Source of the DNA: Neodothiora populina
Lineage: Eukaryota
Direction of reading: 5' to 3'
DNA: 64,000 bases
NCBI RefSeq assembly: GCF_041146345.1
Contig: NW_027191414.1
Span: forward strand, 1,364,001 to 1,428,000
Shown: positions 21,601 through 63,651 of the stretch, piece by piece
How the letters are laid out: each line of letters begins with the position of its first letter
Position numbering within the stretch: position 1 is the stretch's first letter
Made by a program: the position numbers and the translations under genes
Notes under the pieces: generated by a model
The model's input: the letters and a program-made list of their open reading frames with translations, nothing else
Databases searched by the model: none
Told to the model about the DNA's origin: nothing

Positions 21601-21832
21601 GGACCCGGAGATGGCTAATTCGGGTCATCCTTTTGGATGGAGAGTTGTCGAACTGCATCTGTAGGTGAGTGGCAATGGCACTACATATATGTTTCTCGTA
21701 GTGCCGCATGTTGAGTCCGATCGCAATCCACTTTCGCTTTCCATTAGCTGCGTTTCCAAGACCTGATCTCGGACATTGCTTCTAAACTCACTCAATCGCT
21801 CTCTGTTTATATTTGCGGTGGCGAGTCTCATC

Positions 21833-23753
21833 ATGCGGTTCCACAACCTGGTCGAACTATGCCTCTTGGCGTCTGCTTCCTTGGGACTGGGCGAGGCCCT
21901 TCCTGCCCAGAACTATCTATGGGGAGCGGATGGTATGGGAAAGATGGTCAAGCGTGCAACTACTAGCACAACATCTGCTTCATCAACCTCATCACTAGTG
22001 GCAGACGCAGCTTGTACCAATGGTGCTTTGACACGATCATGCTGGGGTAGTGGCTACAGTATCGCCACCGATTTCGATCAGAAGCACCCGACTACTGGCA
22101 AGACTGTTACTTATGACCTCACAATCACCAACACCACTTGCAACCCAGATGGCCACGGTGATCAGCAATGCTTGCTGGTCAACGGCCAATATCCTGGTCC
22201 TGTCATCACTGCCAACTGGGGAGACACCATTAGTATCACTGTACACAACCAGATGCAAGACAACGGTACCAGCATGCACTGGCACGGTGTCCGTCAATTG
22301 AACTCGGTTGGTTCTGACGGTGTCAACGGAATCACTGAGTGTCCCATCGCACCCAGCAAGTCCAAGACCTATACCTTCTTGGCCACGCAATTTGGAACCT
22401 CATGGTACCACAGCCATTACTCATCCCAGTACGGTATGGGCATTGTTGGACCCATTGTCATCAATGGACCGGCAAGCTCGAATTACGATGTTGATCTTGG
22501 AGCTTTCCCCGTCAGCGATTGGTACTATTCTAACGCTGATAATGTCAATATTTTGACCTTGAACGCTCTTCAGACAGGTGGTGCCGGTCCTGCCGGTGAT
22601 ACCATCTTGGTCAACGGTACCATGAACAACGGTAATGGCAAATATGCTCAGGTCACGGTTCAGAAGGGCAAGAAGCATCGTCTCAGACTGATCAACACTT
22701 CCGTTGATGTGAGTAATTCCAGTTTCGACTTCTGTATGATTACTAACCCAAAGACAGAATTACATCAGAGTCAAGCTTGACAACCATCCCTTCACTGTAA
22801 TGACTGCAGATTTCATTCCTGTGAAGCCTTTGCCCGGACAAGACTGGGTTCTCCTGGCTATTGGCCAGCGTTACGATGTCGTGTTCACAGCAAACCAGAC
22901 TGCTGGAACCTACTGGTTCAGGGCCGAGGTCGCTGGTGACTGCTTCAGCGCAAACAACGGCAAAGGACGTGCCTTGTTCACCTACTCAGGCTCTACAGTC
23001 AGTGCGCCTACCGATTCCAACACTGCCCCTCCCACGAATGGTTGCCAGGATCTCGTGACTGTGCCATACTGGAAGCAGGCTGTCGACCAGAGCACTTTCT
23101 CCGCCCAGGCCAAGACACTCAACACTGGTCTCCAGATCCCAGGAGTTACCGCCAACGGCCAGAACCTCGTTCTTTGGGCTCTCAACACTACTGCGATGAC
23201 TGTCAAGTGGGACACGCCGACGCTGCAGTATGTTGCTACAGGCAACACAAGCTACCCTCAGTCATACGACATGATCGAGATCCCGAACGAGGGTGTGTGG
23301 ACCTACTGGATCATCCAGGTTGCGAGCGGCTCGCCGCCTCCTGCTCACCCGATCCATCTTCACGGACACGATTTCTTCGTCCTCGGTCAGGAATCAAACG
23401 CAGTCTTTGATGCCTCGACCGCAAGTTTGAATTTTGCCAACCCGCCGCGTCGTGATACTGCCACTCTCCCCAGCGGAGGATGGTTAGCTCTTGCTTTCGT
23501 GGCCAACAACCCCGGTTCCTGGTTGATGGTAAGAGTTCCTTGTTCTACTTCTCTACTTACCTCAGAGCTAATATGTTTCCTCTTTTAGCACTGCCACATC
23601 GCATGGCACATCAGCGAAGGTCTCGGTGTACAGTTCCTCGAGGCCAAGAACAACATCCAGATGCCCGACATGACACAATTCAACCAACAGTGCTCTGACT
23701 GGAAGTCGTACGCCAAGACCATGCTGTACCCCCAGGTCGACAGTGGCCTATAG
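21833..23753 (+). CDS. Secreted laccase (multicopper oxidase, AA1), 3 exons
   Basis: Signal peptide plus KR pro-site. Four Cu motifs: HWHG, WYHSH, HPIHLHGH and HCHIAWHISEGL. C-terminal DSGL tetrapeptide typical of ascomycete laccases. Confidence 0.96.
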
Positions 23754-25244: not shown

Positions 25245-26438
25245 TCACATCAGACAAGCCTTCATCTCGATAGCAGAGGAAACGGCCGGGGCGGACCCGC
25301 CGAGACGACGGTATCCGCCCTCGCTGGCGACGCGCTTCTGCAGCTCGGCCATCTTCTTCTGGTCACCGGTGGGATCCTTGGAGTCGGCCTCGAGTCCCCA
25401 CTCCAGGAACTCATTAGTGTAGTTGGGCTCGTAGTCGGCGGGCAAGACGCCCAGACGCTTGCCGTAAGCGGTGACTTTGTTCCAGTCGCGCATCACGTTC
25501 TTGAGGTCCTTGCTGAAGTAGGCAAAGGAGCGCTCGAAGATCTTGCGGTTCAGGGGAGTGTTCATGACGGGTTTCATGTCGACGTATTCCTCGTAGGCAC
25601 GGGCGGGGTCGGCAAGGACATAGTCGGTCGCGCGCTTGCAGGCACGCATGAATGCCTTGACTTTGTCTGGGTTCTGGAGGATGAACTCGTCGTTACCAAT
25701 GTAAAGAATGGAACAGAAGCAGCAGCATCCCAGCTCGGCGAGTTCGTCGATGCGCAACATCTGGACGTCGGACTTGGGACGACCTTGCTCCTCAAGCCAC
25801 TCTTCGAGCTCAGGCATTTGGACATTCTCAAGACCAATACCTGCGTCGATGGCGCCAGACTTGATGGCCTTGGCCACGTTCATACCGCATCTCACTGCAG
25901 TGTAGTCGTCGGGAGTCATGCCGTAGTGGGAGGTCAGCTCGTCAATCTGGATCTTGCCGAACTCCCCGACATAACCAATCTTCTTTCCCTTGAGAGTGTG
26001 GAAGTCGGGGGTGATGCCAGAAGACTTGAGGTAGACGACACCAGTAAAGGGCTCATCGAGGAGAGAGCCGATAGATGTGACGGGGAAGCCACGAGCCTTG
26101 GCTGCCAGAGTATGAATCATGGCCTTGAATCCCAAGTCGACCTTGCCACTGCCGATGATCTCCGTAACGTCCTGCCGGCGAAGATAAGTTGATGTGTTGT
26201 GATAGATGGAAAGAGAAAACGTACACTGGGGTCATTGGGCTCGAGCAGAGCAACCTTGACACCCTCATCGGCAAAGTATCCCTTGGCCTGAGCCAGGTAA
26301 ACCGGGGCGTGGTAAGGAGTAGCGTGCCTGTATTCATGTTTCGTGTCAGTCCCAGAAACTCTGCATCTATCTTCAGACAGTGACAGAAAAAGACAAGACC
26401 GACCAGTTGGACAAAAAGGTAATCTTGTCGGTCGACAT
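25245..26438 (-). CDS. NMT1: HMP-P synthase (thiamine pyrimidine biosynthesis), exons 26438-26404, 26327-26225, 26171-25245
   Basis: [27 protein letters not shown] (PLP Lys / substrate His) and CCCFC motif of the THI5/NMT1 family. Confidence 0.97.
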
Positions 26439-50711: not shown

Positions 50712-52546
50712 ATGACTTCCTCCTACGACCCCAATGCGACTAGCGGCCCTCACCAAAGCGACACGATGCCGGACTCACATTTCAAGAAGGGAACTTACAA
50801 GGATGAATCAGACTTGACTTTGCATGACTCCGAGGTCGGCTCCTCCAAAGCGCCTGCTGACAATATGTTGGTCGTGTTAGGGTATCAATCTGAATTAGCC
50901 AGGACCAGGTCAACGTTGCAGGTTGCTTTCATGTCCTTCGTGCTCAGTTCGATACCCTTCGGTCTGTCAACTACTTTCTCATACCCCTTAGTTGGTGGTG
51001 GTCCCGCCGCCATCATCTGGGGCTGGGTAGGTGTGTCCCTGATCATTGTCTGCGTGGCCGTGTCTTTGGGTGAAATCACGTCTGTGTATCCCACCGCTGG
51101 CGGTGTGTACTATCAGGCGTACATGCTGTCTCCGCCCGGGTGTAGAAAATTATTGGCCTGGATCTGTGGATGGTCTTATACGCTCGGCAATGTCATCATC
51201 ACCCTAGCTGTCAATTTCGGTCTCGCCCTCTTCATCGGAGGATGCGTCAACATCTTCAAAGACAGCGAGGGAAACAACGTTTTCGCAGCTGAACCTTACC
51301 AGATCTTCCTGATCTTCCTAGCAATTACCTTGCTTTGCAATGCGGTCTCTTCCCTCGGAAACAAGTGGTTGCCTATTCTGGACGTGCGTATCACCATGCT
51401 CTCGTGACGAGGCTTAATTTTCCCTATCCCCCCGATCTCATTCTGGAAGTTGTGCTTACATGATCACACAGACCTTTGCGATTTTCTGGACTTTCGCTGG
51501 TGTCCTCGCTATTATCGTTTGTGTTCTTGCAATCGCCAAGGAAGGTCGCAACAGCTCCAGATATGTCTGGGGAGGATTCGTCAATGATTCCGGCTGGACC
51601 GATGGCTGGGCGTTCTGCGTAGGCCTCCTGCAGGCGGCATATGCGACATCAGCCACTGGGATGGTCATTTCGTAAGTTTTCGTCTTTGCCACTCAATGCC
51701 GATCCAAGTATACTTACGTGAGTATCAGAATGTGTGAGGAAGTCAAGCAGCCCTCGACGCAAGTCCCCAAGGCATTGGTTGGCACCGTTCTCTTGAACCT
51801 TGTCGCTGGTGTCGTCTTTCTTGTTCCTCTGGTGTATGTCCTTCCTGATATTGCTGCCCTTCTTGCGGATCCTTCTGGTCAGCCTGTTCCAGCAATCCTG
51901 GCGTCAGCGGTTGGCAGCAAAGGTGGTGCGTTTGCACTTACCATTCCCCTCATCGTTCTTGGCATCATCTGTGGTATTGGTTGCACCACTGCCGCATCTC
52001 GTTGCACATGGGCTTTCTCTCGCGATGGCGCCATTCCCGGATCGCATTTGTGGAAGCAGGTCAACCCAACCTTGGGCGTACCTCTGAACGCTATGATGTT
52101 GAGCATGATCGTCCAGATCGCGCTTGGTTGCATTTACTTCGGTTCGGCTGCGGCGTACAACGCCTTCAGTGGTGTCGGCGTCATCTTCCTCACCGTCAGC
52201 TACGCAATACCGATCTTCGCCTCGATGCTCAACAACCGCAAGCAGCTTGTTGGTGCTCCGTTCCACATGGGTGCCTTCGGCGCTTTCTGCAACTGGATAT
52301 CCATTGGTAAGTTGGAAGATGTAATCAGATCCATGTGTAGATGGTGCTAACGTCCATTTAGGCTGGAGTCTTCTCGCTGTGCCCTTGTTCTGTATGCCTT
52401 CAGCCATTCCTGTGACACTGAACTCGATGAACTATGCGTCAGCTGTGTATGCTGGATTCATGTTAATCGTGATGGTCTGGTATTACGCCTGGGGGCGCAA
52501 GAACTACCAAGGACCGCCGCAAGAGGATCACGAGATCCTTCAATAG
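50712..52546 (+). CDS. Amino acid/choline/GABA permease (APC superfamily, ACT family), 4 exons
   Basis: LGYQSELAR, GEITSVYPTAGGVY, MCEEV, SRCTWAFSRDGAIP and MNYAS motifs. Confidence 0.92.
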
Positions 52547-53296
52547 GCGTTGTCTGCTGCCTATTTTTCCTGTGGTCGTTATGCTCCATACCTAACTTTG
52601 TACATAAAAAACCTTATACCCGTACATAGAGTATGTAGCAATACCATCTCATCACTTTTTTCGAAACCTAGCACCCCAAGCTGTGGGTCAGACTCAGCAG
52701 AACGTCACGACTCACCATACAGACGCCTTTGCCGCTCGCAGCAGGAGGTAACACTATTCACCAGCTCTCCATCGGGTTTGGGAAAACTTGCAACTTACAT
52801 TGTGGCCGGCTGTCGCTCTTGATATAGTCGCTGGGCCTTTGAAGCAAAAAATAAAAGAAAACACGATCGCCTGCTCGTAAAACCTCACGCGTCGCTCGTG
52901 GCTCGTTCGTCGGCCTTGTCTAGATGCACGCCAGCGCCAGCGCTCTGATCAACAAGAGGTACTCCACGCCAATAGCCAATGGTCTTTTCAGCGATATACA
53001 GAGACACCGCTCTGATTAAATTGGCGTGCATGCAAAAGTCGCTCACATTGGCTGAGCCGCGGCAATCAACGGAGTGAACGACCATAACAATCTTTTCGTT
53101 TGAAAAGATCGGATTATTTGACCAAGCAATGTCAAATCTTGACGTGGAATAAGTTCTTCATTGATTTCAAATACTAATTCGTCTCGAACGAGTACTTCTG
53201 ATATCCTGACAAGATCCGGCCTCACCGTACCACAATGATACTAATCACGCTGGATGCTACCTACTAAGCTAAAAGCACTCTGCCAGAGCACTCCAT

Positions 53297-54164
53297 CTAC
53301 CATGGATATTGCCCATGCTCATGCACGAAACATCCGTGTTCAGCATCTCTCCCGCCATTGAGGAGCTTGACTATAGGCGCGGCGCCCTCACTCGTTGGCT
53401 TCGCTCCGTTGTCAGCGTTATTGTTTTCACTCAAGTTCGACACGCAGAACCCAGGACAATAAGCAAAGATCTTGAAGCCTTTTGGTCCATGGTGATATAC
53501 CTGGCATGCAGTCACCATGTTCAAGGCGGTTTTGCTGACGCGGTACTGTTCGCCTGCGATGTTGTATCCTGGAGATGTCGGGTCTAGGCGCTTTGCAATA
53601 GATCCCACGCCACTAGAGACATTCACTATCCGTGGAGTCCCGTTCGATTTGCTGAGCAAAGGCGCGAACTTGTCAACCATCACCATTGGACCGATGGCAT
53701 TGGTCTGGAAGCACTGTGCCATCTGCTGTGCCATGGTACCCTGACCAAAAGCCACAGCAGCATTGTTCACTAGAGCATCGAGGCTGGCAGATAACACAAC
53801 ATCAGCAGGTCGATCACCCTACAGAGCATGAAGCCTGGCATTGTAGTGTACATACCGGCCATACTTGGTCTCAACAGCTTTAGCAGCATCCTCGATAGAA
53901 TCCTCGCTGGAAACGTCGACTTCCAACAACTCCACCGTACCCGGCTGCCTCTTCGACTCTAGGTCCTTGATGGCGACTTCGCCTTTGCTAACAGAGCGGC
54001 AGCCAAGGAGGACGAGTTTGGAGGCGTCCGACAAAAGCTGAGACACCAATTCGAGGCCAATGCCTCCATTAGCTTTGGATCGTCAGCGAACACATATCTT
54101 GAGTACGCATGCCGTAAATGATCGTACCTCCGGTTACCAAGACGATGTTCTTTGCAGCAGCCAT
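53297..54164 (-). CDS. Short-chain dehydrogenase/reductase, 3 exons
   Basis: IVLVTG|ANGGIG, LVNNAA, NVSSGVGS, YRVSK (YxxxK) and CPGF motifs. Confidence 0.9.
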
Positions 54165-55128
54165 GAAGGTCTAAAGCTGTATTTTACCTGGTTCAGTGTT
54201 AACGAAAAGCCGCTTGAGTCTGATCGTTGAAGATGGCATCAGCACTGAATTTAAATAGAGCTGTTCACCTTAACTCCGTGACAGGATCAAGCCTTCTTGC
54301 TCTTTACAGTAGAGCTACATTTTATCTCCGGTCTGGCATGTTACATACTGATGCTGCACTCGCTTGATTGGGCAATGGACAAGGTTTACTCCCAACGGAC
54401 TTAACATGAATAGGTACCTAAAGCCGGTGGTTTGACCAGGGTTGCAACACGACCATGTCGCTCTTTGCAAGTCTGTTGTTGAAGACAGACCCAGTCTTAC
54501 CCCTCACAGGATCAAACGGGGAAATGTGTTGAGAAGGAGTAGCATCTCTTGATATTTTCCAGCGACAAGAAAGACGCCTACGTCCGTAGTCGGCTGCTCT
54601 TCGCTTAACAGAAGCGTACAATGTGAGGTTCTATCTTGACCCTGTATCATGAATAACCTTACATACCTTAGCTAGGACTGCTCTGGGGATGGGGGCAATC
54701 CTCACGTGATTAGGCCCCGCAGCAAGAAACGAGTGCTCCATGATGGCTGTGTTCTGACCTCTGTCTTGGTATGGATAGAGATAATCATACAGTATCGGGT
54801 TCGAGGCAGGTCCGCTCTCACGTAAAACGGCAGGCGTACATCTATGGAAACGATTGTCCAAGCGGCCATATATGATGATATAGTATTGCACCGTAACACA
54901 TGGTCGCAAGCCGGTACACAAATGCTCAATTTCCAAGCACTCACTGCAATCACGTGCTAAGAATTTCACTGAAAGGAAACCAGAAAAATGGACTGGACGA
55001 GCCTAGTGGCCATTGTAGTTAATCAGAAAGTATATACACATCAAAATCCTGCAGCCTGTGAACCCTACTATACCACTAACTCCTGTAAGCTAAAGGAAAC
55101 ACCTTCATCTTCACACTGTCCCGGACGT

Positions 55129-56226
55129 CTATCGCTCCAGTAAATCCTCCCGAGGGGTATCTTGTCTATGCATTCGCTCCCGAGTGTCACAACCCAGCCA
55201 CAACAGATCCGGGCGGCTGTAATGCCCACAGATATCTAGGAAGCTTCGCGCGAAAATGGCATGGCTGAAATCGAGGTCTGCAAAGACGCAACCTTCGGTA
55301 GTGGGACCTAGAGACTCACTAATGACACGACCGTCTGGCCCGACCACAGCAGATGATCCACCTCCGGCGGCGTTCATGAGCATACCGGCCTCGGTCGACA
55401 TGGCCTTTATGCCCTTTTCGGTGATGACCTGTGTCGCATGTAGCACGAAGGCTTGTGATTCGATTGCGTAGACTTGAGACAGACTCAAGCATCCTAAGTT
55501 GACTATTCAGTACAAAGGGAGCCCAAGAATGTGTGTGGTTCTACTGACCTTCTGAAGTCATCGACCAGAGACCCGGTCCACCATCGTGTGGCACGATCGG
55601 CGGCCAAGCCGAGCAATGGATGTCTTCCTTCTGATGGATGCTGTGATACTTGAGCAGAGGCTGGGTGTGTTCCCAGCAGGCGAGCGTTCCCACGCGTCGA
55701 TCGAGAGATGTGGATGCTACATTAAAGAGACTCTTGCCAGAAGCGTCTCCGAAGATGGTTCTTTCCATGTGAGTAGCCTTGAGCTTGCGTCGGGTCATGA
55801 GCATCTTGCCGTCCGAGTCGATAAGCGCTTGAGCAATGTAGAGCGAGTTGTTATCGTTCTCCGAGAACCCCAAAGATACAACAACCCCTGCCTTGGCTGC
55901 ACATGCCTGAATCGTGCGCATCTCATCCGAGTCTACTGCTAAAGAGTTCTGAATGTACTTTGTGCTCAAAACAGGGTCCAGAGGACGACTCCTGTGGATA
56001 ATCCGGAGTCAGTACATTGTCTTTGCTTTCCAATATTTCGTGTGGCGACTAACCAAATCCATGCAGGATATCCTGGGATGAACGCCTCTGAGAAAGTGAC
56101 AAGTTCAGCGCCTCCTTCGGCGGCTTCTTCGATGATGTGGCATGCCTTCTGGACCGACTTCTCCAGGTTGAGCCATTCGGGCTCGTGCTGTGATACAGCG
56201 ACTCTGACTGTCGTCTTCTTAGTCAT
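55129..56226 (-). CDS. Nitrilase (carbon-nitrogen hydrolase branch 1; aliphatic/arylacetonitrilase-like), 3 exons
   Basis: Catalytic triad FSE(A)[17 protein letters not shown] and [10 protein letters not shown]-terminal [15 protein letters not shown] (not CWEN) argues against a cyanide hydratase. Confidence 0.95.
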
Positions 56227-56540
56227 GTTTGTAAGAGGTATTGTGCAAGATACGAGGCGAATATCAGGTCAAGGGTGTATGAGGATCAAAGATATGATAT
56301 TGAATGATGACTGTTTGTTGTCGAGCCAATCTGTGGCATCGACTGGCTCTTTATACAGGCACGCGACCGAGTTGCTTACGACAGTTGATAATACAAGCTA
56401 CGCGCTCGTAGCTGATCACAGATAAGGTCATGAACGACCCCGTAAAGAGTAATCTGACTTATCTTACCTTATACTTAACTCTAATACCGTGTGGCAGGAC
56501 ATTTACGGTCAGATCTGCTCTCACTACGGCCTATCTGGGA

Positions 56541-56727
56541 TGCGGATAGGTCTTCCGCAGTGGTGAGAGTTTCATGGTCTCACGCATGCCCAGACACGGC
56601 GGGGTAAAGCATGCTTAAAGGGGTCCAGAGGAGCGTCTAATCTTGCCGATCCCGCTCGTTACTCGTTATATGATACGTACTCAAATGCTGCGACGGAGGT
56701 ATGGCTATCTGCGGATTTCGTACCGCA
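56541..56727. promoter_or_regulatory. Two CGG-triplet palindromes in the nitrilase promoter (candidate Zn2Cys6 sites)
   Basis: TGCGGA-taggtct-TCCGCA at 56541-56559 and TGCGGA-tttcgt-ACCGCA at 56710-56727. Confidence 0.6.
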
Positions 56728-56841
56728 CTCGCGATAATCAATATCCGCTGTCTCAAGCTGATATATACAAGTAGATTACTCGCCAAGTAGATGTATTATG
56801 CTTCGCACGAGCCGTTCAGACAATTTAAAATTGGTATGCAT

Positions 56842-59159
56842 TCATACATTATATGTCGTTGGCCCTTCGTTATCAAACAGCCAGTCAAGGTATGAAGCAT
56901 CCATACCCTGAATAGCAGATGCCAGGTCATCATCATGTTGCAGTGGTGGATCTTCCCAGAAACTCTCGATTGTGGCGTGTAGCGCTATATGGTCGAGCCC
57001 GTCATCAACTCGTATGGCATGAGATGCGAATCCAGGATCGACTCGAGGTGTCGCGTCTTTCTTTGCTGCCTCTCGTGGATTCGATAATGGCCCACTGTGC
57101 GCGATTGGCAAGGTCCATACGACTTCCCACTTGTGGGCAAGCTCTTGTATTCGCCTGAAAGCAGCTCGGGCACGATGACCCCATCTGTCTTGCATCTCGT
57201 ACAGGGCGTCCACGCAGATCCGCACACCATTGGCAGATCGCCGGCCGAGAGGAGTGCGACCTGCAGTAGCATTGAGTAGATGAATGACAGCGGCCGTGAG
57301 AATGTAGTCTATTATCTGAGGGGAAATGCTCGTGAAACTTCGTAGTCGGCGGTAGGCGCGAACGATCTTGGTTATGGTTGCCGCAGCCGTAGTCACCGAC
57401 TGAATGGCAAACCGGCCTGCCGGACTCTTGCCTGATTCATCAAGCAGCGGCCGATGAATCAATATGAGCGAGGTTTGATAGCTGAGTTGTAGCCAGACTA
57501 CAGAATCTGGCATGTATCCTTTGCTCAGTCGCAGTGCTTCATCATTCTCGCTGTTGAACTTCACGAGACTTTGATGTGAACGAAGCACCAGAGCTGTTTT
57601 ATCCTTCCTATCGAGCTGCGCCCAGCCGAAGGCGTATCTGATGATATTGTCAGTCACACGGCGTGTACAAATGGAGAGGGCTCATTTTACGTTTGATCCA
57701 TACAGGAGTCCCATAGATGCCATAGTTCGCAGAATCGGTCGTGCGCTATGTCGTCGACACCAGGGGCGCCTGGTAGTATAGATAAGAAGGAGGGCTGCCG
57801 AACTCGTTGCCAATGCATAGTACAATTCATGCCCAGGCTAGACGTAACAAGCCTTGGAAAAGAAAAAAAGTTAGGCTAAGAGTCCGCTGCGTATGTTGGG
57901 GTCCATCATACCGATCTACTGAAAAATATGCAGAAAAGGAGCGTACACGACGTTTGTAAGCAGACGAGTGGACTGCAAAAGAAGAGTCTGGACTAGTCAA
58001 TGCAGTTACGTGCAGTCCAAGGTGTAGGACTTGTCCTGTTGCCATTGCTAGAGGCGGAGAAATGTCAGTATCATGACTTGTTGCATACCATCGTAACACA
58101 TGTGCAGAGGTCAGCTCACCTATCCAGTTGTATGCCATGCTGTGAGCACCAAGCATTAGGTCTCTCCAACCGAGCAAGGCCAATCCTTGGATAACCAGGT
58201 CACTCGGTTGACTCGCGATACATTGCAATGCAAGATTTGAAGCATTAGAGTAGTAGTTTTCCTCAAGCAACCGGACATGCTGCTGGCCCGAGAAGAATGA
58301 TGCAACCGCAAACAAGGCGTTATTGCGAAAATGGGCGTCTAGTTCGTTTTCACCTTCACTGCCATTGACAAGCAGATTGGCGTCTTCTGAATCAAGAAAA
58401 CGGTGATAGACATTGAATTCGTCCATGAAACATGCCACCAGATGCTGCCTGAGCTCATGGTTGGAGGATGTTGATAGGCTAGTGTTTAGTTCTCTGACAT
58501 TCGCCTTTGGACCAGCCTGAGACACCGAATGTGAATCAGGCACCGTACTCTGGATAGAAGAAATCGTGAAAGAAGGCTCTCCACGGTCCTCAATTTGCAC
58601 CTTAAGCATCAAGGAAGAAAGTTCTTCAATGGCAGCTGAAGATCTGATATATGGTGAATCGCCGCTTCCTTCGTAATCATCGAAGGATGTGTTCCCTATG
58701 AGGTCTGAGGACGTGCTTCTCTCTTGACCGATGCCTTCGTGCTCATGAGCCAGTGCTCTGGAGGGATCTGCGAAAGACCTATCATGCTCATTCGATGATC
58801 TGGCTTCCAGCAGTGCGTTTTGCAGTGTATTAATCTGGTCTTGTAGATTGCGTATGAGCTCTTCATCTTGATACTTTCGTCTGTTTGGCTGTCAGCACTG
58901 CCTCACAAGCGTAGCAGAACGTGAGCATCTCATCATACTTGCGACTCGTCTCCGGGATGTACAAGCATGTGCGCCCTGATCGCTGACACAGGAAGCAAGT
59001 AGGTTTTGCGCCATCGCACTAACTCAAGGTCAATTACAAGCGACTAATATCATACACTGCACATCTTATGCAATAATGCCCTACCTTGCGCTTCCCTTTG
59101 CGACACTCCTCGCAGGCGTTCTTAACGCGAGCACGTGGTTTAGTCTGTTCGTCGTCCAT
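56842..59159 (-). CDS. Zn(II)2Cys6 binuclear-cluster transcription factor with fungal middle-homology domain, multi-exon
   Basis: ACEECRKGKRK|CDGAKPTCFLCQRSGRTCLY, a coiled-coil linker, LHLGLH..RRVRSF..YFSVDR and LILIHRP. Confidence 0.93.
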
Positions 59160-59408
59160 CGAGAGCGTCTGGTCTTGGCACTTGCGGATTATGTCTTGAC
59201 CGAGAAATTAATTAATCAACCCGTAGCATTCTAGATCACAACGACATCAGGCGGCCAACGAGCTTACCATCTTACGGGTTCAGTCTTCATGAACAATACG
59301 AAGTCGTGACAAGAGCTGTTGTCGAGAGCAGCCCGTCCCCCACTCGTTTTACCTTCCACGCCAATCCGTTCAGAGCTGCCTTCCGAAAGTCTAAATCTAT
59401 ATCGCTTT

Positions 59409-59523
59409 TGCGGATGCATCATCCGCACATTCTTATCAATAGACTTCATCTGCATCGTTAGTACAGGGTACAGGTCAAGACAAATTGGAGTTGAGAAGAG
59501 TAATGCGGAATCCATGTTCCGCA
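59409..59523. promoter_or_regulatory. Two CGG-triplet palindromes in the divergent TF/oxd promoter (candidate Zn2Cys6 sites)
   Basis: TGCGGATG-cat-CATCCGCA at 59409-59427 and TGCGGAA-tccatg-TTCCGCA at 59504-59523. Confidence 0.6.
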
Positions 59524-59743
59524 AGATCGATACTGCTACCACAAGGTTGTCAAGTACGGGGTTAGTGTAACGATAAGGTAAGGTAGGTAAGCGGTGGATC
59601 TGCAAGATATATATGGGATGGAATGAATCTCGATGATTGCAATTACTTCAATTCTCATTCGCCAGTATTTTCATCCGATTTGCAAAGCACAGTTTGGTCA
59701 GGGCCACCCTCATAGCTAGAGAACGTTGTCATATCAAGCAGAC

Positions 59744-60841
59744 ATGGTATTTCTCATCGATCTGGGTGATGAAGATCTCCTTTTCACGTACGCTATCTTC
59801 GGCGTTCAGCACCCGACGATGAGCGCGGAGAAGAAACGTCAAATCAGTACTCTACATGACTTGTTGTCATCATCTGCTGGACGTGTAGACCAGCTATGCG
59901 ATGAAGATCATGGCACAAAAGGAGGACACATGCCCCCTTCAACGACTTTCGTTGCATACTGGCTACGCAGCAGTGACTACGAGGAGTTTGCCCAATCGAA
60001 GGCATTTGCAGACTTCTGGAATGATCTACCCGACGATGCTGGCGTCTGGCGGGAGGTCATGACCGTGCCAAAGGCGCGTTATATGTTCGCTGCGAGTCAA
60101 GAAGTGAAGTGGGGCTTAGCCACGATGTCGGAGCTGAAGATCAGTAACGATGAGGGCTATTGGGGAGTATATCGACACCGATTGGGCGATGTAGGAGACA
60201 CATATACGTCTCCATATGTAACCAACACCATGAATAGCACCACCTCTCCAGAGACCGCAGCTGAAAATGTAGAGACTGCGAGACCAGTCTTGAGCATACC
60301 CCAGCCAGGGTCACCAAGCATCGAAGGCGAACAACCGATTCGACGTGGCAAGGTCACCATTACGAATCCACCAGATAACCTATGCTTCGTTCGCGAAGGA
60401 CAGCGCCAGCCTCACGTTTCAAAAGAGGAGGTCGATCTATGGATCGAACACATCTCCCCTCACGCAGCCTCCTGGATTGACCATCTTGACACCAATCGTC
60501 AGAAGAATGGAGTCATGACATTTACAACCCACGTTGGACGTGACAGAGTCGCGAGCAGTGACACTGTCGTAGAAGCTGCACCTGTAGCTGAGACAAACCA
60601 GCTGGCATTCTTCCTTGATCTTGCACATTTTGAGCGTGCAGGAAGAAGTCACAAAGGACACGTACAATTAAGGAAGAATGTCATGCAGCATTATGGACCG
60701 GGAGGCCAGATGCAGAAGCTTGGCAAGGCGGAACTGTTTGTCGAGTTATGTGTCTTGAAGAGCGGTGACTTGATCGCTGAGTATATTGGATGTACAGAAG
60801 GGACCGGGCTGATGTGGCTCGAGTCAGACACGAAGAATTGA
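59744..60841 (+). CDS. Heme-containing aldoxime dehydratase (Oxd) homolog with non-canonical catalytic residues, single exon, 365 aa
   Basis: FGVQ, VAYW, GVWREV, EGYWGVYRHRL, DNLCFVREGQ, FERAGRSHKGH and AEYIGCTEGTGL align with Oxd blocks (EHGYWGSMRER, NIALIRSGQ, ERWSESHPTH, EYINCHPGTGM). First ATG is at 59744. Confidence 0.88.
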   Translation: MVFLIDLGDEDLLFTYAIFGVQHPTMSAEKKRQISTLHDLLSSSAGRVDQLCDEDHGTKGGHMPPSTTFVAYWLRSSDYEEFAQSKAFADFWNDLPDDAGVWREVMTVPKARYMFAASQEVKWGLATMSELKISNDEGYWGVYRHRLGDVGDTYTSPYVTNTMNSTTSPETAAENVETARPVLSIPQPGSPSIEGEQPIRRGKVTITNPPDNLCFVREGQRQPHVSKEEVDLWIEHISPHAASWIDHLDTNRQKNGVMTFTTHVGRDRVASSDTVVEAAPVAETNQLAFFLDLAHFERAGRSHKGHVQLRKNVMQHYGPGGQMQKLGKAELFVELCVLKSGDLIAEYIGCTEGTGLMWLESDTKN

Positions 60842-62321: not shown

Positions 62322-62754
62322 ATGTCTTTCCACCTTTCTGCCCAGGAGATCCACATCGCCGACAACCACATCCTCAGAGCACGTCTCCAGACCGAGAGCG
62401 GCGAATGGCGGGAATCCGAGATCGATCTTGACAACCACATTGGAAACATCAACGGCATGTTCCAATGGGACAGCGCTGGTGAGTGGAGTCTCTCCTGCAA
62501 CGAAGAAGCAAGTAAGAGTTGACCATGTCCAAGGTTTCTCCCAGACTGCTCAGAACGCACACTTCGCCATCGAGGGTGGCGGTCAAGTCCCCGTCCTCCG
62601 TGCTGAGCTGTTCAACGAGGCCGGCGAGCCCATCTCCCGCGACGTGAACTTGGCCGAGAGAATCGAGAACCACGACGGTCAATTCGTCTACAGTATGAGA
62701 TCCATCTGATCAAGTCACAAAGATATGCCAGCTGACAATTGCCCGATAGCCTAA
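62322..62754 (+). CDS. Cyanovirin-N homology (CVNH) lectin, exons 62322-62478, 62534-62692, 62750-62754
   Basis: MSFHLSAQEI..HILRARL..SEIDLDNHIGNINGMFQW..GFSQTA..VLRAEL..DVNLAERIENHDGQF; internal two-repeat CVNH pattern. Confidence 0.92.
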
Positions 62755-63651
62755 GCCCGCTAGAGGATTGCTCGTTCTAGAGGGTATATGATCGAATCGA
62801 CATACCACTAAGACTGGATTGTCAACATCGCGGAAGCGATAGTTTGTATATTAGCATGTTCAGTATGACACACCAATGCAGTGCTGCTTCTACTAGAAAC
62901 GCCTTTGCCCCTGGTTGAAACCATCCCACGTGATGCTGCTACGTAGCCATGACTCGTTATCGGACGAGGAGAACGATAGTAAAAGCATACCCAGTAATGT
63001 GTTCTTGCTTCCGCGTTGAATGGGTCTTGTATTCTTATATTACCTTTGGTATGTTAATGGAACAGGGAGAGGTCCCCAACAGTGATTCGCACCTCGCCAA
63101 CTCCATGCTTCGAGCTATGTCTCCTCAAGCTATCGTACACGCCATATCTGATACAGACGTGAATTGCGGAGTGCTGTCGTATGAGCGTATACTCAACACG
63201 TCATGAGCCGCTGAAGTGCGCGGATGGAGATTTGTCGCAGCATTGTTTTCAGGCCGACACTAGAGCTTTGACCACAGCAGCGCCACATGAGGCTACGCGA
63301 GTAAGCAGCATAGCGACACCTTCGCTGAGTCACAAATGCTCTGAGAAAGTCGTTACGATCTTCTTTATGCTACGTGCTACGTCTGCCCAGCCAGATAAGC
63401 AGAATCCGGGGTAGGGCAAACTCTCATATCTTACCATCAGTCTGGAGACTTCAGGTAAGGGTAGGTAAGTGCCACGTGTATCTCACCTTACCTTACTGTA
63501 CCTAATTGTACCTTACCTTTGAACAGTCCTTTAGATACTTTACCTGCTCTCGGCCTAGACCAGCCAGCAAGAAAGCGATTCTCCCACATCCCCATTGCCT
63601 GACAAAAATATTGTATCCTGATCTCGCGTAAAGGAAGACGCCGATTGGGCA

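Follow-up and report, generated by a model that had tools for sequence, protein, structure and literature searches.

A palindromic CGG repeat in the promoters of a fungal aldoxime–nitrile gene cluster, a probable binding site of the regulator whose gene lies between those of the enzymes

The window analyzed here, which is the whole 64-kb stretch of DNA, carries adjoining genes for a nitrilase (nit), a zinc cluster transcription factor, and a heme aldoxime dehydratase (Oxd; gene oxd). Linkage of a heme aldoxime dehydratase to a nitrilase with Glu-Lys-Cys motifs identifies the locus as an aldoxime–nitrile cluster. Its genes and the palindromic sites in its noncoding DNA are listed below by their positions in the window.

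55129 to 56226, minus strand: nitrilase gene, three exons, 326 aa, ATG at 56226
56842 to 59159, minus strand: Zn(II)2Cys6 transcription factor gene, six exons, 669 aa, ATG at 59159 and stop at 56842
59744 to 60841, plus strand: heme aldoxime dehydratase gene, intronless, 365 aa, PF13816 match with E 1.6e-75
56541 to 56559: site 1, TGCGGATAGGTCTTCCGCA, CGG-N9-CCG, 315-333 bp upstream of the nitrilase ATG
56710 to 56727: site 2, TGCGGATTTCGTACCGCA, N8 with one arm imperfect, 484-501 bp upstream of the nitrilase ATG
59409 to 59427: site 3, TGCGGATGCATCATCCGCA, N9 with perfect 8-bp arms, regulator ATG at 250 bp and oxd ATG at 317 bp
59504 to 59523: site 4, TGCGGAATCCATGTTCCGCA, N10, 221 bp upstream of the oxd ATG
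59183 to 59189, plus strand: lone half-site TGCGGAT, 24 bp before the regulator ATG

All three exons of the nitrilase gene match PF00795, and residues E47, K127, and C163 are presumably its catalytic triad, as judged from nitrilase motifs. Its two introns (55992-56053 and 55494-55548) are seen as GT-AG joints in contigs. The sequencing run X2 is labelled “DNA?” and derives from the same sample as a possible source of the assembly. Because its contigs skip seven GT-AG introns, they were taken to be transcript-derived, and such contigs cannot fix true transcript ends. A further run, X3, contributed three short, near-identical pieces and no promoter footprint; contigs from neither run cover 59294-59935. 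When translated with these introns, the factor is 669 aa long and identical to P0121, a Neodothiora populina protein.

Genes for an amino acid permease and a short-chain dehydrogenase (SDR) adjoin the cluster (50712-54166). The earlier note had seen no palindrome in front of either, and indeed none lies in the 600 bp upstream of each gene. The SDR gene was also not found at any foreign locus examined, which agrees with its missing motif. Downstream from oxd is a small intron-containing gene with a CVNH (cyanovirin-N homolog) domain (62323-62756). Farther away, frames that by eye resemble a multicopper oxidase and a Thi5/NMT1-type thiamine pyrimidine synthase were noted at 21767-23588 and 25245-26231.

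In canonical aldoxime dehydratases, a His ligates the heme, a distal His and Ser occupy the active site, and the characteristic triad is Arg-Ser-His. The window enzyme keeps the His that aligns with the heme ligand and carries Glu and Val where the solved bacterial enzymes have Ser and His. Its residues (R144/R146, E218, H306, and V333) place it in the REV type, with E218 and V333 replacing the distal Ser and His. Among 58 aligned homologs, Glu and Val are each found at these positions in 55. A fold predicted from the single Oxd sequence has a mean pLDDT of 33. Scans of prokaryotic genome contigs and of viral contigs returned no Oxd relative (zero of 67 and zero of 64 candidate stretches, respectively).

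In the available portions of two reviews, the REV type is said to be common among fungi and little studied (PMC11568032), and the REV/REE group as a whole is called poorly known (PMC11568032, PMC8955678). The first of these reviews lists XP_001597459.1 as OxdSs, an enzyme acting on indolyl-3-acetaldoxime and 4-hydroxyphenylacetaldoxime (PMC11568032). OxdSs (SS1G_01653, from Sclerotinia sclerotiorum) is 57% identical to the window Oxd and has the same REV motifs, so the window enzyme belongs to a clade in which at least one member is reported to be active. A nitrilase, SS1G_01652, bears the locus tag neighboring that of OxdSs.

The earlier note had drawn attention to the four palindromes, and a pattern scan of the window found all of them at the coordinates and spacings given for them. 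Each contains an inverted pair of CGG triplets, as do all 13 sites collected over all loci, and each lies in noncoding DNA 221-501 bp upstream of the nit or oxd ATG. Site 1 falls in the gap that separates the nitrilase contig, which reaches 56432, from the regulator transcript contig, and it aligns with the sole site of the Aureobasidium-type nit promoter. Site 2, in comparison, is covered by the spliced transcript contig of the regulator, whose 3′ part continues down to 56641. Because this contig spans 56641-57637, site 2 lies within the regulator 3′ UTR, the only one of the four to do so. Thus, the two sites that had been assigned to the nitrilase promoter are both upstream of the gene, but the N8 site also belongs to a transcribed part of its neighbor.

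The pattern proposed in the earlier note (TGCGGA-N6-8-WCCGCA) yields seven strand matches in the window, corresponding to the four palindromes and nothing else, and 100 shuffles of the window gave a mean of 0.05 matches with none reaching seven. Because the pattern was tuned on these same four sites, the window count is post hoc and by itself proves little. Independent tests were provided by a scan of an orthologous locus with the unchanged pattern and by two enumerations, one of inverted dyads and one of plain words, which are described below.

Throughout the 23.96-Mb genome, the exact pattern has 24 strand matches at 16 places, of which four are in the cluster and 12 are outside. The outside places account for 17 strand matches, and the reversed-pattern control also gives 17. 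Hence, the motif is dense in the cluster and rare outside it. The earlier note had named abundance across the genome as grounds for abandoning its proposal, and what was found is a background level. A wider regulon finds no support in the 12 outside places, four of which fall inside long coding frames and none of which is paired with a second copy. Two single, near-consensus palindromes, each ∼230 bp upstream of a gene, are compatible with chance yet are the best candidates for outside targets. One precedes a metallo-beta-lactamase-fold gene (L014:1501-1519; G000 C16) and the other an amino acid permease-like gene (L015:1501-1520; G000 C17). Elsewhere in the genome, PF13816 also matches L052, but this match is weak, partial, and without a palindrome, and the nitrilase-family paralogs L049 and L050 also have none.

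Relaxed forms of the pattern are less discriminating. The looser TGCGG-N7-11-CCGCA occurs at 93 genome places versus 83 for its control. The word TGCGGA-N0-20-TCCGCA occurs at 29 versus 11, and because these places are scattered across 14 spacer lengths, the control is imperfect for that word. TGCGGA-N7-TCCGCA occurs at four genome places; in only two of these are the inner bases A or T on either side, and these two belong to the cluster.

Orthologous loci were sought by scanning metagenomes with an alignment of 58 fungal Oxds, which yielded 18 loci. Five of these (L017, L022, L025, L030, and L034) have <200 bp upstream of the match and are uninformative on promoters. Matches to TGCGG-N5-13-CCGCA are present at six of the 18, and in five of the six they lie in promoters. 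Three independent foreign clusters could be footprinted.

The first of these is represented by L018 and L019, which encode Oxds 97-99% identical to that of Aureobasidium pullulans and were counted as one species. Their genes stand in the same order as those of the window; a single N9 site precedes nit, and the divergent promoter contains three more sites, all N9. The unchanged pattern finds three places in the 15 kb of L019, all in nit or oxd promoters, whereas 200 shuffles gave a mean of 0.01 and none reached the observed count. In promoter alignments between the window and L019, the palindrome is the clearest conserved block; in the intergenic region between the regulator and oxd, this block is site 3, aligned with L019:6746-6764. 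Like the window, L019 carries another site closer to oxd (N9, 192 bp upstream). At the place of the lone half-site at 59183, L018 and L019 carry a full N9 site, 26 bp before the regulator ATG, and no counterpart of site 2 was found in their nit promoter. Between L018 and L019, 36 of 458 bp of the divergent promoter differ, yet none of the 42 half-site bases do (p 0.027).

The second cluster, L021, is sister to Exophiala aquamarina in the Oxd tree and carries two sites, N11 in front of oxd and N10 in front of nit. In this rearranged cluster (L021:6742-14940), 2.7 kb separate the tandem oxd and nit genes. No regulator ortholog was found in its 15 kb, and a different zinc cluster gene follows nit. 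In the third, L031, the 3′ end of the regulator lies upstream of oxd, together with an N9 site that has one outer mismatch and a weaker N7 site. The expectation in the earlier note that orthologous promoters would keep the motif is therefore borne out by the L018/L019, L021, and L031 sites. The footprints indicate that the motif is conserved across Dothideales and at a locus sister to Exophiala aquamarina.

The remaining loci offer less. L026 has one weak N11 site and no regulator match in its 8.5 kb. At L029, a single N12 match is inside the coding frame, and upstream there is only a weak GCGG-N7-CCGC. No site was detected in the upstream DNA examined at L024, L027, L028, and L032. L020 and L023 each carry a lone oxd without a site and without a regulator or nitrilase match within 7 kb on either side. 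Apart from its Venturia-like oxd, L020 has no long frame in 15 kb of AT-rich DNA (L020:1-15083), where TpA/ApT is 1.1-1.9, which suggests that the surroundings of the gene have been degraded by RIP.

Seven promoters were used for the motif enumerations: the nit and oxd promoters of the window, L019, and L021, and the oxd promoter of L031. They were chosen because nit or the regulator adjoins oxd, the set was fixed after the first locus scan had been seen, and L018 was omitted as a duplicate. TGCGG is the sole 5-mer whose inverted dyad is present in seven of seven promoters (null maximum of three over 500 shuffles), and among nine control promoters only that of L026 contains it. The plain-word enumeration recovered TGCGGAT in all seven promoters, a count reached in none of 300 shuffles, and TGCGGATG in six (null maximum of four). 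The refined motif is TGCGGAW-N5-WTCCGCA. Its 26 half-sites begin with TGCGG, followed by A (20 of 26) and then by T or A (24 of 26). Spacers over the 13 sites are N9 in seven, N10 in two, N11 in two, and N8 and N7 in one each. Tolerance of variable spacing, as proposed in the earlier note, is thus only suggested by the N7-N11 range, given that N9 is clearly preferred.

Other words in these promoters were considered and set aside. Two nit promoters have six GATA-type sites apiece (uncorrected p 0.08 and 0.02), which is not significant. The GATA-factor-like GATAAGGT is present in four of the seven promoters, a count reached in 36 of 300 shuffles. Its occurrences, at 56420 and 59571 of the window and in the L019 and L021 nit promoters, are a hint of nitrogen control that falls short of significance. 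GCGGGG, which we take to be a CreA-like word, is found in six of seven promoters and is not above the null.

The protein encoded between the enzyme genes has an intact zinc cluster (residues 16-43) of the form CX2CX6CX5-12CX2CX6-8C and a middle homology region, with both PF00172 and PF04082 above cut-off, as befits a Zn(II)2Cys6 factor. The best solved relatives of its zinc cluster are Hap1, Lac9, and Gal4. A basic linker (49-56, low confidence) has constant length in 12 close sequences, the window protein and 11 orthologs, and is followed by a long helix (58-83) predicted from the single chain, in which L64 and L71 are nearly invariant among homologs. The middle region is predicted to be helical, with Cep3 as the best fold match of the model.

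In 12 named taxa, the locus tag of the regulator ortholog directly adjoins that of oxd: Exophiala aquamarina, E. mesophila, Aureobasidium pullulans, Aureobasidium sp. EXF-8845, Botrytis cinerea, B. deweyae, B. galanthina, B. calthae, B. convoluta, Monilinia laxa, M. fructigena, and Sclerotinia borealis. Monilinia vaccinii-corymbosi, in which the tags are not consecutive, is an exception. All homologs found are unnamed hypothetical proteins or bear automatic labels only. A Monilinia fructigena model (P0133) fuses the regulator with the nitrilase, probably through an annotation merge of adjoining genes. The best alignment of the S. borealis regulator (P0206) spans only 16% of the query. This short alignment and the absence of an S. 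sclerotiorum ortholog among 35 matches may reflect decay in Sclerotinia.

The arrangement can be compared with several known systems. The sites of Gal4/Lac9, Put3, and Ppr1 consist of CGG triplets in inverted orientation, to which Zn(II)2Cys6 homodimers bind, with spacers of fixed length (N11 for Gal4, N10 for Put3, and N6 for Ppr1). The window sites share the inverted CGG-Nx-CCG form, and the protein shares the zinc cluster, linker, predicted long helix, and middle homology region. The differences are that N9 is preferred here, that the half-site is extended to TGCGGAW, and that N7-N11 spacers occur among conserved sites. PrnA, QutA, AlcR, and GliZ are further pathway-specific Zn(II)2Cys6 regulators embedded in their clusters. 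AlcR recognizes the half-site TGCGG, as here, in inverted repeats 2 bp apart, whereas the window regulator has standard cysteine spacing and its putative sites have spacers of N7-N11. AflR, too, is encoded within the cluster that it controls, and its sites, like those of the window, precede cluster genes and occupy a divergent promoter, but its motif is given as TCGG-N3-SCGA in the available text (PMC12501005).

Bacterial aldoxime–nitrile operons, which combine oxd with a nitrilase or nitrile hydratase, are described as having the same two-step chemistry and linked genes (PMC8955678, in part). The fungal cluster differs in having separate promoters that would be coordinated by a shared site, and in having an Oxd of REV rather than canonical type. 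OxdSs resembles the window enzyme in identity, motifs, and a nitrilase with a neighboring tag, but differs in lacking, among those 35 matches, a regulator ortholog in its species.

From these sequence comparisons, we consider it probable that the palindrome is an upstream activation sequence of the embedded factor, bound by a homodimer with a preference for N9. In the mechanism that we infer, two copies of the factor join in the manner of Gal4, and the zinc cluster of each reads one TGCGGAW half-site of an inverted pair, preferably CGG-N9-CCG. Homodimers on paired CGG triplets are described as the family norm in the portion available (PMC6265462). The bound factor would turn on oxd, whose product would convert an aldoxime to a nitrile, and nit, whose product would convert the nitrile to an acid and ammonia. 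The inducer is probably a plant aldoxime or its nitrile, which the middle region would sense, and the sites in the divergent promoter may control the regulator gene as well.

Several observations stand against this proposal. Spacing departs from N9 in six of 13 sites, unlike the fixed spacing of the Gal4, Put3, and Ppr1 sites. The L021 sites have no regulator nearby and a different zinc cluster gene beside nit. Site 2 is in a transcribed 3′ UTR, and the M. vaccinii-corymbosi tags are non-consecutive. Expression data from S. sclerotiorum, a species whose regulator and promoter lie outside this comparison, are also at odds with joint control. In the available parts of one study, SS1G_01652 is up 3.4-fold at 24 h and 2.3-fold at 48 h, and SS1G_01653 is absent from four supplements (PMC5372324). 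In another, the direction is opposite, with SS1G_01652 down early (PMC7065775), and the supplements of that study gave no matches.

One alternative is that a zinc cluster factor encoded elsewhere reads the sites and that the embedded gene has a different or subsidiary function. In its favor, both L021 sites persist with no regulator nearby, L026 has its weak N11 site without a regulator match, and CGG half-sites are reported to be common to many family members (PMC12719309, in part). However, outside the cluster the genome carries the motif only at background level, which implies a regulon about the size of the cluster, and the motif is missing from L020 and L023, where oxd stands alone. Moreover, the regulator is linked to oxd in 12 taxa that include the sister lineage of L021, and relocation of the regulator in L021 is therefore the simpler reading. 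On balance, an outside factor seems unlikely. The earlier note had taken the palindrome for the binding site of the embedded factor and the regulon to be nit and oxd. This reading is supported, with the background level of the motif elsewhere in its favor and with L021, which retains its sites with no regulator close by, as a caveat.

The variable spacing raises a different question, namely whether the embedded factor occupies TGCGGAW as two loosely coupled monomers, in the manner of Pho7, AlcR, or AflR, with spacing free over about a helical half-turn. Monomer binding is reported for these three proteins, in AlcR with extra helices within the zinc module (accessible text of PMC6265462 and PMC12501005). 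The extended 7-bp half-site, the N7-N11 range, the low-confidence linker at 49-56, and the lone half-site at 59183, which stands in place of a full L019 site, would all fit such an arrangement. Yet the sites are inverted pairs with a mode of N9, isolated half-sites are common in the window (24 copies of TGCGGAW, eight of them in the cluster promoters), and a conserved long helix with two nearly invariant leucines follows the zinc cluster. We therefore regard loosely coupled monomers as quite improbable. Coincidence, favored by tuning the pattern after the fact, is scarcely a credible explanation of the repeats. The pattern was fitted to four sites and its looser form barely exceeds its control across the genome, but the promoters of L018/L019, L021, and L031 yielded the motif independently, and two unbiased searches also returned it, so this possibility is already largely refuted. 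A homodimer of the embedded factor on the N9-preferring palindrome thus remains the reading that we favor.

The host offers a plausible context for such a switch. Available text reports that several poplars make aldoximes after herbivory (PMC10756763) and that N. populina causes aspen canker (PMC8032200). Because the regulator is identical to an N. populina protein and poplars make aldoximes, a host link is plausible. The cluster probably degrades plant defense aldoximes, and its Oxd, whose activity is predicted from homology to OxdSs, may act on host-derived substrates and have some part in disease. A bolder extension, which we put forward only as a tentative and rather doubtful idea, is that the factor is a dedicated sensor of plant defense aldoximes across three ascomycete classes. 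Leaf- and bark-dwelling fungi might then detect CYP79-type chemistry of the host and derive auxin-type acids (phenylacetic or indole-3-acetic acid) and nitrogen from it, using a coiled-coil dimer whose basic linker accepts N7-N11.

In the full-text literature, with subscription papers thinly covered, no description of the regulator or motif was found, and a literature search for aldoxime, fungus, and Zn2Cys6 together found no paper. Six Botrytis and Sclerotinia locus tags were found only in two transcriptomes (PMC5372324, PMC7065775), and the available sections of two reviews give no fungal regulator of the route (PMC11568032, PMC8955678). The type of switch is ordinary and its mechanism is textbook; what appears to be new, within the literature covered, is its description for the aldoxime pathway.

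The fungal aldoxime–nitrile route has so far been known through a few purified enzymes, and a candidate regulator, its putative site, and two putative targets can now be named. Orthologs exist in tractable fungi, including Aureobasidium pullulans and Botrytis cinerea, where BCIN_02g03020 adjoins BCIN_02g03030. An aldoxime-inducible promoter would serve as a biosensor, and the tractable orthologs make the sensing of plant aldoximes by fungi directly testable.
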